In this document: positions 609-18,231 of the stretch, one piece after another
Layout: the number at the start of each line of letters is the position of its first letter
Position numbering within the stretch: the first letter of the stretch is position 1
Source: a virus
Taxonomy: Duplodnaviria > Heunggongvirae > Uroviricota > Caudoviricetes
Direction: 5' to 3' (one strand)
IMG/VR virus record: IMGVR_UViG_2667527959_000011
Coordinates: 1-18,423 of that record
Length of the DNA: 18,423 bases
Made by a program: the position numbers and the translations under genes
The notes under the pieces: generated by a model
What the model was told of the DNA's origin: nothing
What the model saw: only the letters and a program-made list of their open reading frames with translations
Databases searched by the model: none

Positions 609-625
609 AAATTAATTAGAGCAAT
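609..625 (-). promoter_or_regulatory. C1 repressor operator-like site just upstream of ssb
   Basis: Minus strand reads ATTGCTCTAATTAATTT, 16/17 match to the P1 C1 operator consensus ATTGCTCTAATAAATTT (consensus recalled from the literature). Lies about 20 bp upstream of the ssb GTG. Confidence 0.55.
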
Positions 626-5701: not shown

Positions 5702-8700
5702 ATGAACAAGCTATCTATGGGGGTGTTTCGCTGTTCAAGTGTCAGCGAAATATTGAAATACATTAGGGCAATAACATCTCACCGAGCGCCGATTAAATAC
5801 GGCGTGGAAAAGGTGGAAGGCAAAAGCTATGACCAACTGCGCCGGGAGGCGAATCAGAAGGCGATAGATTTGCTTAATTCGCTGGTGGACGGCGCGACAC
5901 TGACAGATGAACAGCGCCAGATCCTGGCTGGGTACACCGGTGAAGGCGGCATTGGCGGGTCCGTCTCCGAATATTACACACCAAAGCCGATCGCTGAAGG
6001 TGTCTGGGAGATCATGAAGCTCTACGGCGCGGACGTAGGTAACACTCTGGAACCATCGGCGGGCACCGGCGTTTTTAATGAGACAAAACCGGTTGGTACG
6101 GTGATGACCGCGACTGAGATCAGCAGTGTTTCCGGTCGTATAAACCAGCTGTTACATCCGGAAGACAGCGTACAGATTTCCCCGTTCGAACAACTGGCTG
6201 TAAGCACGCCTAACGATTCATTCGACCATGTTGTGGGTAACGTTCCGTTCGGCGGTCGTGATAACACACGCAACATCGATAAGCCTTACGCAGAAGAAAC
6301 GGATATGGGGTCTTACTTCATGCTCCGCATGCTGGACAAGATAAAGCCAGGCGGATTCATGTGTGTGATTGTGCCGCCGTCCATTGTTTCAGGTTCAAAC
6401 ATGAAGCGGTTGCGTCTGCGCCTATCCCGTAAAGCTGAATTTCTTGGCGCTCACCGCTTGCCTACCGGTACTTTTGACGCAAACGGGACCAGTACGGTCG
6501 TTGACGTGGTGCTGATGCGCAAACATCCGGCGGAGATGGCTGAGAAAATCCCCCTGGTGGATGAAGGCACTCTTGAATCGGCAAATGTGCTTTGGCCAAC
6601 GTTTATTTCTGGCAAGTGGTTTGAAAAGGACGGCCGCCGGTTTGTTCATGGCACCCAGGAGAAGGGATTCCAGGGGCGTATTGAGGTTCGTGCCGACGGG
6701 CAGATTGATAACCAGGCTCTTAAAGCGAAGCTGATTCATCGTTTCGAAAGTCGTATCGACTGGTCTTTGCTCGATATGGCTGAACCGTCACCGACCGCAG
6801 ATGTTGTTGATGAAGGGGAAATGCGCTTGATTAATGGCGTATGGCAAAAATATGCTGGTGGTCGCTGGATTGAAGCTGATGCTGGTAAGGAGCTTAAGAT
6901 TGATGCTGCCAGTTATGGCGCGGATAGCTGGGAGGCTCTTCAGCGTAACCTGACTACAACAGAAGGCCGTCTCGGTATGACATTTACCCAGATGGCAAAT
7001 GTCCGCGATAAGTACACCACATCAATCAGCGACGATATGGTGCAGCTGGTGGACTGGATTAACAGCCAGCCTGAAAAATACCGTGAACGCTTGTATCGTG
7101 GGGCGATGATTGGCCGGATGTTAATTGAATATCAGGATATGAAGGCCGCCGGGCATAGTGCTGAACAAATCGAACAGCAGCGCCTTTCTCTGGTGTCCCG
7201 TTTGCAGGCAGAGATTGACCGTTTTGGTAACCCCGGTCGCGGTCCGATAGCTAAATTATCGGGAAGCGGTGCGCGCGCCTGGTTTGCTTTCCGTGGTGCA
7301 ATTAAGCTGGATGGCACTATTTCTGACGAGCTAACAGGAAAGCTGGTTACGCATGATTCCAGCGCCAGTTATGACTCCACCAGCTATCAGGACACCCTGC
7401 GTTATCTCTATAGCGATCTTACCCGCGATCCAATCCAGCTCGATGATTTCCGCCTTGCGTTTACCGGCGAACTGCCAGCCAGTGATGAAGAGTTGCTTAA
7501 TTTATTGGCCAGCACCCCTGGTATTGCGGTTTCACCGTATGGCGGGATTGTTCCGTTCGCCCGCGCCACCAGCGGCGACATTAACGAGATAGTGGCTCCA
7601 AAACAGGAATTCCTTGCCACACTCCCCGACGGTCCAGTAAAGAACAACGTCCTTAATCAGCTGGCAGCGATCGAAGAGAAGCGCATCAAGACGCCAGCAG
7701 AGAATATCCGCTTTAAGCTCAATAGCCGTTGGTTCGACCGCTCCGTCATTCTGGAGTTTTTGCAGGAAAACGGCTATCCGGATCTGCGCTATGTGCAGTC
7801 AGTGCAGCTGGAAGGCGACGAAATGGTTTCTGACACCTATCACGGTGGTGATGGTCTGTTCGTCGGGCACCGATACGGTGTCGTCCAGCGCAAGGATAAA
7901 GAAACAGGCGAGATCCGCTACGAGTGGGACCGTAAATCAGGTGAAAACGCGACTGGGTTCCCGGCACAGCTGGAAAAGTATCTCAATGGTGCGCGTATCG
8001 GTGGCAAAGATAGCGCGACGGCGAACGGCTACCGCGAGCAGATGGCACTGCTTGAGGACCAGTTCAATAAGTGGATCAAGACGCACGATCGCTACGATGA
8101 GCTGGTTGCCAAATACAACGATGTGTTCAATAGCAATATCCCGTATGAACACTCTGGCGATCCGCTTGTGTTGAAGGGATTAAGCGGTAAGCGCCAGCCA
8201 TTTGATTACCAGAATAGCGAGGTGCGCCGACTGTCCGAAGATGGGCGCGGCATCCTGGGCTTCGGCACCGGGCTGGGTAAAACCACGACCGCGCTGGCGC
8301 TTGAGGCGTTCAACTATGAGAACGGTCGCTCTACCCGTACTGCGTATGTAGTGCCTAAATCAGTGCTGGAAAATTGGTATTACGAAGCAAAAGAATTCCT
8401 GAGTGAAGAGGCATTCAGTAACTACCTGTTCGTCGGTCTTGATGTGCTGATGGATGGCGATCAGATTCGCCAGGTGCCGGTGCTCGATGAGAACGGTAAA
8501 CCTGTTCTTGGTACTGATGGCACTCCAGTTATGCGCGATGCTCTTAAGCTGGCAGATGAAGCCACTATCACGGCGCGGATGAACGCGATCCCGCACTCAA
8601 ATTACCGTGCAGTCGTGTTTACCAAAGAACAATACGCCCGCATTCCGCTACGTGATGACACCGTAGATGAGCATGCACAGGATATGCTTTATGACTTCGT

Positions 8701-13234: not shown

Positions 13235-14542
13235 TTACACTATATTCTTAACTATAAGGTTGGCGTCCTTCAAGGTGCCTAATGTTTCAATGTGGTTTTT
13301 TATCATTAATCTATTTGAGGCAATTATTGCAGGCCATCGTGTTTCCCAAGCTCTGTAAGCATACCAAGAAACTCCCCAATTCCTTTCTTTACTCATATGA
13401 CCCATCGAGTATTCAACTGCGTCTAAATATGTTTTTTCATACTTAGTATTGCTAACCTCTATGATGCTTCCAAAATATATAAGCCATTTTGCCAACTGTT
13501 CATATTGCTCCCACGCTCCGTTATTCCTTGTTAACTTTCTCTTTTTTTCTATTATCCTTTCGAAAAGAGAAACGACTTTATCATCATTCCAATCTAAACC
13601 TTCCGATATAATTGATGATATAATTTGATAAAATGAATCCTCTAATTTAAGATATTCATTTTTATAAGTATAAGCCCCCGAAACAACTTTTCTGATATTT
13701 TCGCGCGCTCTTTCAATGATGTCTTTAATGAGAGATATCTTATAACTTAATCGACTAAAGAAACAATCTATTTCTGTATTGTCAATTACCCTTATACCAA
13801 AGCAATAGAAGTAATAATCCTTCATATCTTGACTTACTTTGTTGCGAGATATCAAAAAGATATTAGAGCACAGGGCATTATTTTTCGAAAATTTTTTATA
13901 GTCATTTATAATTGCTTTAAGATTTGTGTCGCTTAAAGAATACCCTAATATCGCAACTGTATTTTCATGCAGCATCGTACTAAGTTTTCGTGAAAAATAA
14001 GTATCGGAATTTATAAATCTGAAGTAATCATCTGAAGTGACAATCATATTTTTTGGCGAATCAATAGAGCCATGAACATGATATATTTTCACCTTGGATG
14101 GATACTTTGGAATTGGCAGGCCGGGCGTGATAGACTGTACACTTTCATCTCCAACCAAGCATTCAGCCAACTTGTCATAATTTGTTGTAATGACACGGAA
14201 TGAGTTTTTTTGGAAAAAATCTTTTATATTTGATATGTCTTCTCCAAGTTGAATTGGAGATATGATGTCAACAATTTCATCATAAATCGACTTACCCTCA
14301 ATATTGAGCTTCAAAGATAGTATTTGTGCGGCTTCTTCAAGACTCAGTGCTGGTGGTTTATCATCAGGGAATAACGTGTCTTCCAACTTTTTGGCATTGT
14401 GAACTTTGCTGCAAACTTTTTTTAATAGTTCCTTCCACGTTGGAGCTTCACCGTTCGAGACTGCCTTTGAAAAGCCAGTCCCGGTAAATAGACAAAGCCT
14501 GCTTGTAGCGGCAGCGTATGCTAACTCAACATATTCGCTCAT
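13235..14542 (-). CDS. SIR2-like (SIR2_2/DUF4020-type) protein, candidate NAD+-depleting defence effector
   Basis: 435-aa ORF with GGAG SD 8 nt upstream of the ATG. Motifs: LFTGTGFS...APTWKELL near the N-terminus, VITTNYDKL, KIYHVHGS, MIVTSDDY and VAILGYSLSD. No CxxC...CxxC zinc ribbon. About 180 C-terminal residues have no recognisable motif. Gene is markedly AT-rich compared with its flanks. Confidence 0.8.
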   Translation of the reverse strand: MSEYVELAYAAATSRLCLFTGTGFSKAVSNGEAPTWKELLKKVCSKVHNAKKLEDTLFPDDKPPALSLEEAAQILSLKLNIEGKSIYDEIVDIISPIQLGEDISNIKDFFQKNSFRVITTNYDKLAECLVGDESVQSITPGLPIPKYPSKVKIYHVHGSIDSPKNMIVTSDDYFRFINSDTYFSRKLSTMLHENTVAILGYSLSDTNLKAIINDYKKFSKNNALCSNIFLISRNKVSQDMKDYYFYCFGIRVIDNTEIDCFFSRLSYKISLIKDIIERARENIRKVVSGAYTYKNEYLKLEDSFYQIISSIISEGLDWNDDKVVSLFERIIEKKRKLTRNNGAWEQYEQLAKWLIYFGSIIEVSNTKYEKTYLDAVEYSMGHMSKERNWGVSWYAYRAWETRWPAIIASNRLMIKNHIETLGTLKDANLIVKNIV

Positions 14543-14597: not shown

Positions 14598-14625
14598 TTT
14601 ATAGATAATTTCCTTTTCCAGTTAA
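14598..14625 (-). promoter_or_regulatory. Candidate sigma70 promoter for the SIR2-like gene
   Basis: On the minus strand: TTAACT, 16-bp spacer, TATAAA. The -10 overlaps the stop codon of the upstream mat-like gene. Confidence 0.3.
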
Positions 14626-15240
14626 CTCCCCTTTAGGCACCCGTTTTTGTGCCAGTGTTTGGGTTCCGCGAATTATGTTAATCAGAGGGCTTAGTAACGA
14701 TGATTCCTGGCGGGCATCAACTTCTCCTGCCATTGCCCTAATGTAGTCGGCGCTTGCAACGTTGTTATATTCCGTTGCGAAGCAGCATAACAACGTCAGA
14801 ACGTGCTCTGTCGTTATTTCGCTCCAGTTGATGTTGAAAAATTCATCGCCTTTTTTGTCATGTTCGGAATCGAAGATGCTTTGGTGAAGGATGTATTTGC
14901 CGGATTCCTTGCGCGGTAACTTGATCGCTTTCTGGCGTTCCAATTCCTTGTAAATCTGCATCGCTTCAATCAGTACCGGTCTGCCGTTCATGAAGGGATC
15001 ACGCAACCTTACACGCTGGCCAACTCGACCGGTAATAAAGCTGTTTTCCTCTTCCACCAGCACGATAAAACCCTTTTCCTCTTTTTCTCGCAATTCGCGC
15101 AGCAGCTGGAGTTCCATATCGCGGCGGCGTTCAGGGTAGCTGGTCCGCTCAGCCATTATCAGCTCATTGTTGATCCATGCGGCAGTCATTGACGCCGGTT
15201 TGCCGACGCTCATCGAAACAACGCATATTTTCTTATCCAT
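14599..15240 (-). CDS. Hypothetical protein, possible Mat homolog
   Basis: 213 aa from the ATG at 15240. The ORF track extends it to a GTG at 15267, which would place a terminator-like hairpin inside the coding region. Assignment by position between ref and the res-mod slot. Confidence 0.45.
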   Translation of the reverse strand: MDKKICVVSMSVGKPASMTAAWINNELIMAERTSYPERRRDMELQLLRELREKEEKGFIVLVEEENSFITGRVGQRVRLRDPFMNGRPVLIEAMQIYKELERQKAIKLPRKESGKYILHQSIFDSEHDKKGDEFFNINWSEITTEHVLTLLCCFATEYNNVASADYIRAMAGEVDARQESSLLSPLINIIRGTQTLAQKRVPKGELTGKGNYL

Positions 15241-15250
15241 AGCGCCCCTA

Positions 15251-15278
15251 CAAAAAAGAAAAGCCACCAGCGGCGGCT
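15251..15278 (-). terminator. Terminator-like hairpin plus U-tract in the leader of the mat-like gene
   Basis: Minus strand reads AGCCGCC-gct-GGUGGCU (one G-U pair) followed by UUUUCUUUUUU, ending about 10 nt before the ATG at 15240. Confidence 0.4.
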
Positions 15279-15428: not shown

Positions 15429-15991
15429 TTAGTGCATGATGTTTGCCATCTCATAGGCGTCAGCCAGTAACTCCATCTCTGACTTGTTCAGTAGGGTGAA
15501 TTCTTTCTTGCCTCCAACCACACCATCGGCATGAACAGGGACCAGCCAGGGGTATTTTGCTCTTACTTCAGTCGGTGCTGCATGCTGGTGGTGCCATCTC
15601 TACAAAGTGGCAATTGCTTTTTATGACAACCCGGCGCGGTACGACCGGCGATATGGTGCAGAGACACCTCATTAGATATTACTCCATGCATATAGCAGGC
15701 AATGCAGGGGAGAGTGCCAAGAGCATTGGCGATGCGCCGTTCCTCCGCCGTTGGTGTTCTCCCCTTCAAGCCACGAGATTTTATTTTTACCGCGCTTTTC
15801 CGCGTTTTGCTGGCTGGTGGGCGCTCTTTCTGTTTAGCGATACGGCGGTCGATAGTATCCCGCATTTTCTGATATTGAGATTCTCGCCAGACCGGATCAG
15901 CCAACTTCTCCCGTTGCCGAGCGATCGCTCGTTCTCTGGCTGCCTTCTGCCACTTGCGGCACTGTTCAATTTTTTGTTCGATTGTTTTCAT
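15429..15991 (-). pseudogene. ref: Ref (HNH-type recombination enhancement endonuclease) with a frameshift
   Basis: N-terminal 131 codons (MKTIEQKIEQ...LPLCR) are in one frame; the remaining 55 codons (WHHQHAAPTEV...ANIMH, stop at 15429-15431) are open in the -1 frame. The break falls in the minus-strand run TGTAGAGATGG (forward ~15597-15603). Removing two bases restores a 186-aa product. Confidence 0.8.
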
Positions 15992-15997
15992 ATGGTC

Positions 15998-16024
15998 AAA
16001 AAAAAGGCGGCCTAATAGCCGCCT
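15998..16024 (-). terminator. Intrinsic terminator 6 nt upstream of the ref start codon
   Basis: Minus strand reads AGGCGGC-uauuag-GCCGCCU followed by seven U (forward A-run 15998-16004), then gacc and the ATG. Confidence 0.6.
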
Positions 16025-16083
16025 ATGATGTCAAGGAGTGAAGTAATGGCAACGTCTTCGTAGTTGACAAAAACTGCGACTCA

Positions 16084-16107
16084 ATTATAGCAACCAATTA
16101 GAGCAAT
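16084..16107 (-). promoter_or_regulatory. C1 operator(s) overlapping the presumptive ref promoter
   Basis: Minus strand reads ATTGCTCTAATTGGTTGCTATAATTGA. The first 11 bp match the operator consensus, a second TTGCTATAAT half-site overlaps, and a perfect TATAAT -10 is at forward 16084-16089. Confidence 0.55.
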
Positions 16108-16212
16108 TAAAGTTGTTTATTTATCGCGAATCACATTTTTTCACTTCAGTACCTGTGTGCTATACTCCTTCTTGATTGATTGGATGCGGAATACAAACCC
16201 GCTCTTTTGTGC

Positions 16213-16244
16213 AGCCTGGCTCCTTGCCAGGCTTTTTTTTATTT
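16213..16244 (+). terminator. Plus-strand intrinsic terminator overlapping the cra stop codon
   Basis: AGCCTGGC-tcctt-GCCAGGCT followed by a run of T ending at 16240. On the minus strand no U-tract follows, so it is directional. Confidence 0.6.
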
Positions 16245-16550
16245 CATCATGGAAGCTGTTAACGCTTTGGACCTTGCTGAACTGATTGAGAGGGCTTTGT
16301 CAACGTGCCCCAAAAATTCGCCAAACTCAGACATCACTTTAGCAAAACCGCGCCGTGCTTCTTCCTCGGTGGCATTCATCACGAAATGTTCAGCACCACG
16401 CATACTTTTGACAGGGAACGCAACGGATATTGAATCAATATCAGGCATTCTATCGCTCAGCTTTACAGTGACAATGACGGCTGGCGACTGAATATTAGTG
16501 CTTACAGACAGCACTACATATTTTCCGTCGATGTTGAAATCCTTTCGCAT
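16239..16550 (-). CDS. Hypothetical protein downstream of cre, possible Cra
   Basis: 103-aa ORF of balanced composition between cre and ref. The overlapping plus-strand ORF (16180..16491) runs through the terminator hairpin and is considered spurious. Confidence 0.45.
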   Translation of the reverse strand: MRKDFNIDGKYVVLSVSTNIQSPAVIVTVKLSDRMPDIDSISVAFPVKSMRGAEHFVMNATEEEARRGFAKVMSEFGEFLGHVDKALSISSARSKALTASMMK

Positions 16551-16600: not shown

Positions 16601-17632
16601 CTAATCGCCATCTTCCAGCAGGCGCACCATTGCCCCTGTTTCACTATCCAGGTTACGGATATAGTTCATGACAATATTTACGTTGGTCCAGCCACCAGCT
16701 TGCATGATCTCCGGTATTGAAACTCCGGCACGGGCCATATCTCGCGCGGCTCCGACACGGGCACTGTGTCCAGACCAGGCCAGGTACCTCTGGCCAGAGT
16801 CATCCTTAGCCCCGTAAATCAATCGGTGAGTTGCTTCAAAAATCCCTTCCAGGGCGCGAGTTGATAGCTGGCTGGTGGGTGATGGCGAGGCAACACCATT
16901 TTTTCTGACCCGGCAAAACAAGTAGTTATTCGGATCATCAGCCACACCAGAGACAGAAATCCATCGCTCGACCAGTTTAGTTACCCCCAGGCTAAGTGCC
17001 TTCTCTACACCCGCGGTACTAACCAGCGTTTTCGTTCTGCCAATATGGATTAACATTCTCCCACCGTCTGTACGTGAGATATCTTTAACCCTGATCCTGG
17101 CAATTTCGGCTATACGTAACAGGGTGTTATAAGCGATCCCCAGAAATGCCAGATTACGTATGTCCTGGCAGCGATCGCTATTTTCCATGAGTGAACGAAC
17201 CTGGTCGAAATCAGTGCGTTCGAACGCCAATGCCTGTTTTGCACGTTCACCGGCATCAACGTTTTCTTTTCGAATCCGCCGCATGACCAGTGAAACAGCA
17301 TTGCTGTCACTTGGTCGTGGCAGCCCGGACCGACGATGAAGCATGTTTAGCTGGCCCAAATGTTGCTGGATAGTTTTTACTGCCAGACCGCGCGCCTGAA
17401 GATATAGAAGATAATCGCGAACATCTTCAGGTTTTGCGGGAAACCATTTCCGGTTATTCAACTTGCACCATGCCGCCCATGACCGGCAAACGGACAGAAG
17501 CATTTTCCAGGTATGCTCAGAAAACGCCTGGCGATCCCTGAACATGTCCATCAGGTTCTTGCGAACCTCATCACTCGTTGCATCGACCGGCAATGCAGGC
17601 AAATTTTGGTGTACGGTCAGTAAATTGGACAT
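16601..17632 (-). CDS. cre: Cre tyrosine site-specific recombinase
   Basis: 343-aa protein starting MSNLLTVHQNLPALPVDATSDEVRKNLMDMFRDRQAFSEHTWK and ending MVRLLEDGD. Near-identical to Cre as I remember it, with about three substitutions. Confidence 0.98.
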   Translation of the reverse strand: MSNLLTVHQNLPALPVDATSDEVRKNLMDMFRDRQAFSEHTWKMLLSVCRSWAAWCKLNNRKWFPAKPEDVRDYLLYLQARGLAVKTIQQHLGQLNMLHRRSGLPRPSDSNAVSLVMRRIRKENVDAGERAKQALAFERTDFDQVRSLMENSDRCQDIRNLAFLGIAYNTLLRIAEIARIRVKDISRTDGGRMLIHIGRTKTLVSTAGVEKALSLGVTKLVERWISVSGVADDPNNYLFCRVRKNGVASPSPTSQLSTRALEGIFEATHRLIYGAKDDSGQRYLAWSGHSARVGAARDMARAGVSIPEIMQAGGWTNVNIVMNYIRNLDSETGAMVRLLEDGD

Positions 17633-17639
17633 TTAACAC

Positions 17640-17861
17640 TCAGATAATGGTTTTAAGTAAAGTGTACAGGATCGGCTCTGCCTTTACCTGTTTATGGTTC
17701 TCGTCATAGAAACGCCAACGACCGCGACTGCGTTCTATCTTTTCTTCACCGCGCGATAATGACAGTTGACAACTATCACGATCAAACCCTTTTGCCCGCC
17801 AGTAACCACGATTTTTCTCAAGCTCAAGATGAGTGGACACTTTAGCAGCTGAATATCCCAT
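17640..17861 (-). CDS. Hypothetical 73-aa upstream ORF in the cre leader
   Basis: AGGTG SD 4 nt upstream of the ATG. Its stop (TGA, 17640-17642) lies 7 nt before the cre ATG, which has no strong SD of its own. Confidence 0.35.
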   Translation of the reverse strand: MGYSAAKVSTHLELEKNRGYWRAKGFDRDSCQLSLSRGEEKIERSRGRWRFYDENHKQVKAEPILYTLLKTII

Positions 17862-18127: not shown

Positions 18128-18144
18128 AGAATTATTAGAGCAAT
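18128..18144 (-). promoter_or_regulatory. C1 operator-like site
   Basis: Minus strand reads ATTGCTCTAATAATTCT (14/17). The forward strand here also partly matches the consensus, so the site is partly palindromic. Confidence 0.5.
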
Positions 18145-18204: not shown

Positions 18205-18231
18205 TTGACAATTGCTCTAATAAATTATAGT
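18205..18231 (+). promoter_or_regulatory. Candidate promoter with an embedded C1 operator
   Basis: TTGACA (18205-18210) directly followed by ATTGCTCTAATAAATTA (16/17) and a TATAGT -10-like hexamer at 18226-18231. The 15-bp spacer is short for sigma70. Confidence 0.5.

Follow-up and report, generated by a model that had tools for sequence, protein, structure and literature searches.

The ref locus and its C1-controlled promoter

The window, by which we mean the whole 18,423-nt stretch of DNA that was analyzed, belongs to a P1-type phage-plasmid. A 1.2-kb segment around the hairpin upstream of ref is 97% identical to phage P1 DNA (NC_005856, positions 1468-2666), in reverse orientation to P1, and the operator, the TATAAT hexamer, the hairpin, the U8 tract and the ATG align base for base with P1 positions 1962-2079. 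The exact variant was absent from the plasmid collection, where the best match reached 99.4%. The minus strand carries the genes in the order cra, cre, c8, ref, with the following features.

17640-17861, minus strand: cra
16601-17632, minus strand: cre
16239-16550, minus strand: c8 (from the list of open reading frames; homologous to the P1 CDS c8), directly upstream of ref and the putative source of read-in transcription
16213-16241, plus strand: second strict terminator, overlapping the c8 stop codon; its U-tract lies only on the strand opposite to the c8/ref sense
16107-16091, minus strand: Oref, C1 repressor operator ATTGCTCTAATTGGTTG, occupying the ref promoter spacer (named Oref in the P1 record at the homologous position)
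16084-16092, minus strand: extended -10 of P2ref, TGcTATAAT (TATAAT at 16089-16084; P1 annotates the P2ref -10 at the homologous hexamer)
15992-16077, minus strand: ref leader, 86 nt when counted between predicted start and ATG (minimum free energy, MFE, -22.1 kcal/mol, z = -3.7 versus shuffles)
16025-16052, minus strand: predicted promoter P1ref, -35 TTGCCA (16052-16047), 16-nt spacer, TGa and -10 CATCAT (16030-16025), annotated 'predicted sigma 70 promoter P1ref' in NC_005856
16024-16005, minus strand: terminator hairpin AGGCGGCU-AUUA-GGCCGCCU, from the strict terminator scan, folding and covariation
15998-16005, minus strand: U8 tract that completes the terminator; relative to the ATG it covers -14 to -7, the usual Shine-Dalgarno position
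15429-15991, minus strand: ref, RecA-dependent HNH nuclease, frameshifted (from the alignment to P1 ref)

At the homologous sequence, the P1 record NC_005856 annotates P2ref (-10 = TATAAT), a 'monovalent C1 controlled operator Oref' and the predicted P1ref, and its notes connect the ref region with GenBank M23246 and M27041; no terminator feature is annotated there.

On the minus strand, the ref gene of the window carries a 2-bp AG insertion relative to P1 at 15601-15600 (ref nt 391-392). It leaves 142 of the 186 codons open, up to 15563, and cuts the frame off ahead of the second half of the nuclease domain; the Pfam RecA_dep_nuc match covers only profile positions 1-52 of 103. This copy of ref is probably a pseudogene, or the insertion is a sequencing error. 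Farther on, beyond a mat-like ORF (14599-15267), a 435-aa ORF with a SIR2_2 domain (13235-14542, minus strand, E = 1e-23) occupies the position where P1 has the type III restriction genes res and mod, and looks like swapped defence cargo.

An operator and a perfect TATAAT had been read at 16084-16107 from the letters alone, and both were recovered, at 16107-16091 and 16089-16084, respectively. The C1 repressor, which acts with Bof at some operators, has a 17-bp asymmetric operator consensus (ATTGCTCTAATAAATTT). The 11-nt core of Oref, ATTGCTCTAAT, matches this consensus at 11/11 positions and the full 17-mer at 13/17, placing Oref just outside our 3-mismatch operator search of the window. Oref lies between the -35 and -10 elements and overlaps the promoter, which matches the layout of C1-controlled promoter-operators of P1. 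The -35 of P2ref is weak (about 16112-16107). From the usual spacing, transcription is predicted to start near 16077, with the hairpin 53 nt later, the end of the U-tract at ~80 nt and the ATG at 86 nt. The leader of ~85 nt described in the sequence-only reading therefore holds as the distance from start to ATG, not as a stretch ahead of the hairpin.

The P1 ref gene is up 73-fold on thermal inactivation of C1, peaks slightly later than ssb, dmt and kilA, and H-NS binds its 5' region at CGATAAA, which corresponds to window 16126-16120 (Ronayne et al., 2016; PMC4713147). By analogy with the P1 homologue, C1 would also repress through the variant operator of the window. Four more C1 operator matches with up to 3 mismatches were found in the window, at 609-625 (minus), 5756-5772 (minus), 18128-18144 (minus) and 18211-18227 (plus), against a chance expectation of 0.12; the 18128-18144 and 18211-18227 sites are located past cra, on the side of the immunity region.

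Anatomy, conservation and covariation of the terminator

The hairpin consists of 8 pairs (A-U, six G-C and one U.G) closed by the loop AUUA, with a free energy of -14.5 kcal/mol. The first T of the T8 run pairs with A16024, leaving U7. The 7-bp GC hairpin with a U7 tract read earlier at 15998-16024 is thus present and one pair longer. The ref ATG, at 15991, follows GACCAT and lies 6 nt past the U-tract, and no purine-rich Shine-Dalgarno sequence precedes it, as had also been noted. Upstream of the hairpin, the leader forms a 5' helix (16077-16049), followed by a CU-rich box, ACUCCUU (16040-16034).

Under strict criteria (a perfect stem of at least 7 bp with at least 6 GC pairs, and a T-run of at least 7), the scan returned two sites on both strands of the 18.4-kb window and 0 in 300 dinucleotide shuffles, so that the terminator site is not a chance occurrence. 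A looser scan was uninformative (6 found versus 5.1 expected). On the sense strand of ref, the element combines the parts by which intrinsic terminators are recognized, namely a GC-rich stem of ~5-14 bp, a loop of 3-8 nt and, immediately 3' of the stem, at least 5-6 U residues; on the reverse strand no T-run follows the stem. These data support a canonical intrinsic terminator, predicted from sequence, between the C1-controlled promoter and ref.

The P1-like set comprised 83 loci (Ref 92-100% identity) with 54 distinct upstream sequences and 23 distinct leaders. The stem GGCGGCC/GGCCGCC is not disrupted in any of the 83 loci. The loop varies (ATTA, ATCA or TAAA), as does the flanking leader, and in the divergent L020/L060 lineage the leader is much changed and the stem and T8 are intact. 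A metagenome scan anchored on the upstream flank gave 57 matches, 10 of which were unrelated (sharing a 15-mer only) and 47 P1-type. In 45 of the P1-type copies the stem is either perfect or shorter by one pair; of the other two, L249 carries a C to U that keeps a wobble pair, and L234 a G to U that disrupts the stem. The TATAAT of P2ref is invariant in the alignment of relatives, and the Oref core is invariant in P1-like relatives except one transposon-disrupted pair. In L026 and one identical locus, all DNA beyond mid-Oref on the upstream side has given way to unrelated sequence, leaving CCCTAATTGGTTGCTATAAT; the junction resembles a Tn21-family terminal inverted repeat. In such elements, C1 control of ref would be lost and the terminator kept.

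The order of operator and TATAAT, leader, hairpin, U8 and start is kept in four lineages (P1-like, JK004-like, L095 and Salmonella phage-plasmids) among which Ref identity is only 65-81%. In Cronobacter phage JK004 (Ref 65% identical) and its relative L094, the operator, ATTGCTCTAATAATTAT with a single-base difference in L094, is followed by TATAAT, a leader of ~55 nt, the hairpin GACGGUC-UUCG-GACCGUC, U8 and an ATG 13 nt on. Two Salmonella phage-plasmids have a hairpin identical to the JK004 type and a GTG start, and the L095 hairpin is GACGGUC-UUCG-GGCCGUC. The Oref core was found in all of these, and a T-run of T7 to T10 in every terminator-bearing relative. When viral contigs were scanned with the operator pattern for further hairpin types, the Salmonella type was found again and nothing else.

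Comparison of these hairpins shows that stem pair 2 changes from G-C (P1 type) to A-U, and pair 6 from C-G through U.G (L095, a wobble intermediate) to U-A. Each of the 21 distinct leaders compared forms all 7 core pairs, compensatory changes occur at two of these pairs, and the RNAalifold consensus of 13 representatives, computed with no structure supplied, contained the terminator helix and no other. In the shuffle control, the number of pairs changed on both sides was reached in 95/500 shuffles and is not extreme, and only two or three lineage splits, hence few independent events, account for the compensatory changes. Single stem changes are almost all C to U (the window, L022/L058/L059, L041, L249 and L095). 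After such a change, only RNA of the ref sense can still pair at this position (as G.U), which favors an RNA hairpin on the ref-sense strand over a DNA palindrome. A palindrome serving as a protein-binding site was disfavoured on these grounds and by the invariant T-run.

In the JK004, L095 and Salmonella lineages the genes upstream of the operator differ (NinX-family or hypothetical, not cre/c8) and end within ~15 nt of it, with no terminator between; the ref terminator is kept. Taken together, the comparisons show the terminator to be maintained by selection. The window differs from P1 by a private C to U that turns a G-C pair of the stem into G.U, by an additional A-U pair at the base of the stem, by one extra base before the ATG (GACCAT instead of GCCAT), by one more operator mismatch and by the frameshifted ref; the unique stem change could reflect relaxed constraint.

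Read-through, the internal promoter and the leader RNA

Transcripts from the operator-controlled promoter would have to read through the terminator to express ref, as the sequence-only reading had reasoned. With the terminator placed between promoter and ref, and given the C1 response of P1 ref (PMC4713147), this reasoning appears sound. The further proposal of an attenuation switch or of processive antitermination found no support: there was no conserved competing helix, leader peptide or known antitermination RNA. Folding of the leader, which had been suggested as a check, returned the terminator helix as the sole RNAalifold helix, and the competing fold proved weaker and not conserved.

A regulated attenuation, with read-through switched on after induction by an alternative leader fold or by a trans-acting antiterminator from P1 or the host, is in our view unlikely. 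When the nascent leaders of P1 and the window were folded up to the loop, GUUGCC(A) paired with (U)GGCGGC of the terminator 5' arm, giving with the 5' helix a 1:2 / 2:3 / 3:4 layout, and in the JK004 and Salmonella leaders ACUGUCA can pair with UGACGGU. The slightly later peak of P1 ref relative to other C1-controlled genes (PMC4713147) would also fit such control. The competing folds, however, are far weaker (-7 to -15 kcal/mol) than the terminated folds (-19 to -26 kcal/mol). The GUUGCC:GGCGGC helix was disfavoured as a specific antiterminator on the ground that it shows no covariation; it is unpaired in the JK004 and Salmonella leaders and not predicted in the natural P1-like variants L006, L077, L060, L020 and L081. 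RNAalifold revealed no second conserved helix beside the terminator across the compared leaders, and a conserved 5' leader helix was rejected because it is limited to the P1 lineage. At gathering score, Rfam gave no family, riboswitch, leader or antitermination RNA in the window; the sub-threshold matches to sRNA families are terminator-driven and well below that score. No nut-, qut- or put-like element was found between the promoter and the terminator. To our knowledge, no antiterminator protein of P1 has been described. A 1988 article by Windle, Laufer and Hays in J Bacteriol (170:4881) reportedly names in its title the P1 ref promoter-operator, an attenuator and evidence for an antiterminator, so that regulated read-through may have experimental support.

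Attenuation through a leader peptide was also rejected. No frame is conserved across the leaders, and the window leader contains no ATG or GTG. Its frame has UUG starts only, with no Shine-Dalgarno sequence. In the window this frame stops at UAG, in P1 it stays open and joins ref in frame, and in other variants it shifts with the length of the T-run. Short ATG frames occur in JK004 and L091, and the Salmonella locus L090 has none. The stop codon of the frame overlaps the stem base in the window (UAG) and in JK004 (UGA), and the TGA that ends the JK004 frame is part of a conserved CCCTGAC box, and not a sign of a leader peptide.

The sequence-only reading had overlooked P1ref, which lies inside the leader. 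Its -10 ends one base before the stem, and its predicted start, at about 16019-16017, falls inside the 5' arm of the hairpin; P1ref transcripts would therefore lack that arm and escape termination. Productive ref mRNA might then come from P1ref, with the terminator ending only P2ref and upstream transcripts, a bypass that we hold to be improbable. The elements of P1ref, which NC_005856 annotates, are kept in all P1-like leaders, even in the divergent L020 and L060 (TGaAATCAT). The promoter is a prediction, however, and the scan that scored it at 9/12 plus TG at -15/-14 did no better than shuffles (12 sites versus 11.8). P1ref has no operator, yet ref is strongly C1-dependent (73-fold; PMC4713147), and the JK004, L094, L095 and Salmonella lineages lack the P1ref -10 but keep operator, terminator and ref. 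It is still less probable that the terminated leader of ~80 nt is the product itself, a C1-repressed small RNA, with ref expression as a by-product of leakage. The leader does have an Hfq-type shape (5' stem-loop, single-stranded stretch and terminator with U8), it carries the CU-rich box in four lineages, and Rfam lists sub-threshold sRNA matches. Those matches follow from the terminator, though, no target was identified, and the CU box has a possible partner in cis, the G-rich ribosome site of the JK004, L095 and Salmonella leaders.

The CU-rich box resembles an anti-Shine-Dalgarno sequence (ACUCCUU, CCUCCCU, UCUCCCU or ACUCCUCC) and, with UGAC after it, sits within a few nucleotides of the terminator, on its 5' side, in all four lineages (window 16034-16040, minus strand; homologous positions in L085, L090, L091, L094 and L095). 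In the non-P1 lineages it can pair with the GGG or GGAG ribosome site after the U-tract. The window also contains a perfect complement of the box, AAGGAGU, at 16169-16163 in the c8-ref spacer.

The same spacer holds a candidate small RNA on the plus strand (16138-16241), pointing away from the ref promoter. Its predicted promoter combines a weak -35 (TTTTCA, 16138-16143) with an extended -10 (TGcTATACT, 16158-16166) and would start transcription near 16173. The RNA (~69 nt, about 16173-16241) would form two stem-loops followed by the strict terminator at 16213-16233, whose T8 ends on the c8 stop codon (MFE -23.2 kcal/mol, z = -3.0). It is unannotated in NC_005856, and its Rfam matches are sub-threshold only. 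Across 43 distinct P1-like sequences this stretch hardly varies, and its conservation exceeds that of the ref leader. A speculative extension, to which we give little credence, is that after induction a phage or host factor recognizing the leader, perhaps via the CU-rich box, actively controls read-through, and that the c8-ref spacer yields two unannotated small transcripts (the ~80-nt ref leader and the divergent ~69-nt plus-strand RNA). Were this true, an undescribed antitermination or small-RNA layer would exist in the immunity-adjacent region of P1.

Proposed attenuation and read-in at ref compared with known systems

We favor, with a probability of roughly 0.7 (the readings weighed here partly overlap and are not fully exclusive), a working Rho-independent terminator within the ref transcription unit that serves as a leaky attenuator and as a barrier to read-in. 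What the sequence and its relatives show is the anatomy, the conservation and the covariation; from these we infer that the element terminates in vivo, where transcription starts, how much of it reads through and what the arrangement is for. The terminator would attenuate transcripts from the C1-repressed extended -10 promoter P2ref, most of which would end as a leader RNA of ~80 nt, with a minority reading through to give ref mRNA. For the read-through, constitutive leakage is the most likely explanation, ahead of a regulated switch.

The terminator would also block transcription entering from upstream, which in P1-type elements would come from cre and c8, genes that lack their own sense-oriented terminator. 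On the sense strand, no U-tract follows the hairpin near c8, so that c8-sense transcripts would reach the ref-proximal terminator. The earlier suggestion that the hairpin mainly ends cre-cra transcripts is plausible to this extent, as sense transcripts from cre and c8 meet no earlier canonical terminator, but the adjoining gene is c8. Repression by C1, binding of H-NS and the U-tract in the Shine-Dalgarno position would be further layers holding Ref low; U-rich tracts can recruit ribosomal protein S1. Ref, an endonuclease that harms the host, would consequently be almost silent in lysogens and modest after induction.

Points against the leaky attenuator are that, in the P1 lineage, P1ref could supply ref mRNA without read-through, and that the 1988 title speaks of an antiterminator. 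The D6-lineage homologue of Ref, which has a Shine-Dalgarno sequence and no terminator, indicates that the design is not obligatory for Ref. Low ref expression is advantageous, because P1 ref lowers lysogenization 40-fold (PMC4713147). Ref also sensitizes lysogens to DNA-damaging antibiotics (PMC4713147), and these two effects give practical relevance to limiting the Ref dose.

The window represents the same locus as the ref region of phage P1, with the same operator-TATAAT-hairpin-U8-ATG arrangement. Judging from the 1988 title and the sequence, the hairpin would be the 'attenuator' named there, as nothing else that resembles a terminator lies between the promoter-operator and ref. The P1 layout and the idea of attenuation were thus already known, by title, and finding the hairpin from the letters alone was a sound rediscovery. 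Our additions are small: (i) comparative support across four lineages; (ii) the lack of a conserved antiterminator; and (iii) the limitation of P1ref to the P1 lineage. In four diverged lineages, selection maintains the terminator-in-leader design, with neither a conserved antiterminator nor P1ref accompanying it.

Like ref, the trp, his and pyrBI operons have a promoter-proximal Rho-independent terminator in the 5' leader before the first structural codon. In contrast to these attenuators, the ref leader has no conserved leader peptide or antiterminator/anti-antiterminator helices, and its terminator ends 6 nt before the start codon with the U-tract in the Shine-Dalgarno position. The lambda N/nut and Q/qut systems and HK022 put likewise place an early phage gene behind a terminator downstream of a repressor-controlled promoter. 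Unlike them, ref has no nut-, qut- or put-like element, and a single small gene lies behind its terminator. The late genes of P1 are activated through Lpa and are not known to depend on an antiterminator.

The D6-lineage ref loci encode a RecA-dependent nuclease homologous to Ref (56% identity), and a palindrome resembling an operator lies upstream of the gene. None of the 21 distinct upstream regions of this lineage contains a P1-type operator or a terminator; each has a palindrome of its own, and in most an AAGAGG or AAGAGA Shine-Dalgarno sequence stands 8-9 nt ahead of the ATG. The conserved palindrome upstream of the D6-type ref genes (L086 2270-2300; L174-L201) reads roughly TGTTAGAAAATCAATTTTGATTTTCTAACA, and may be the operator of a D6-type repressor.
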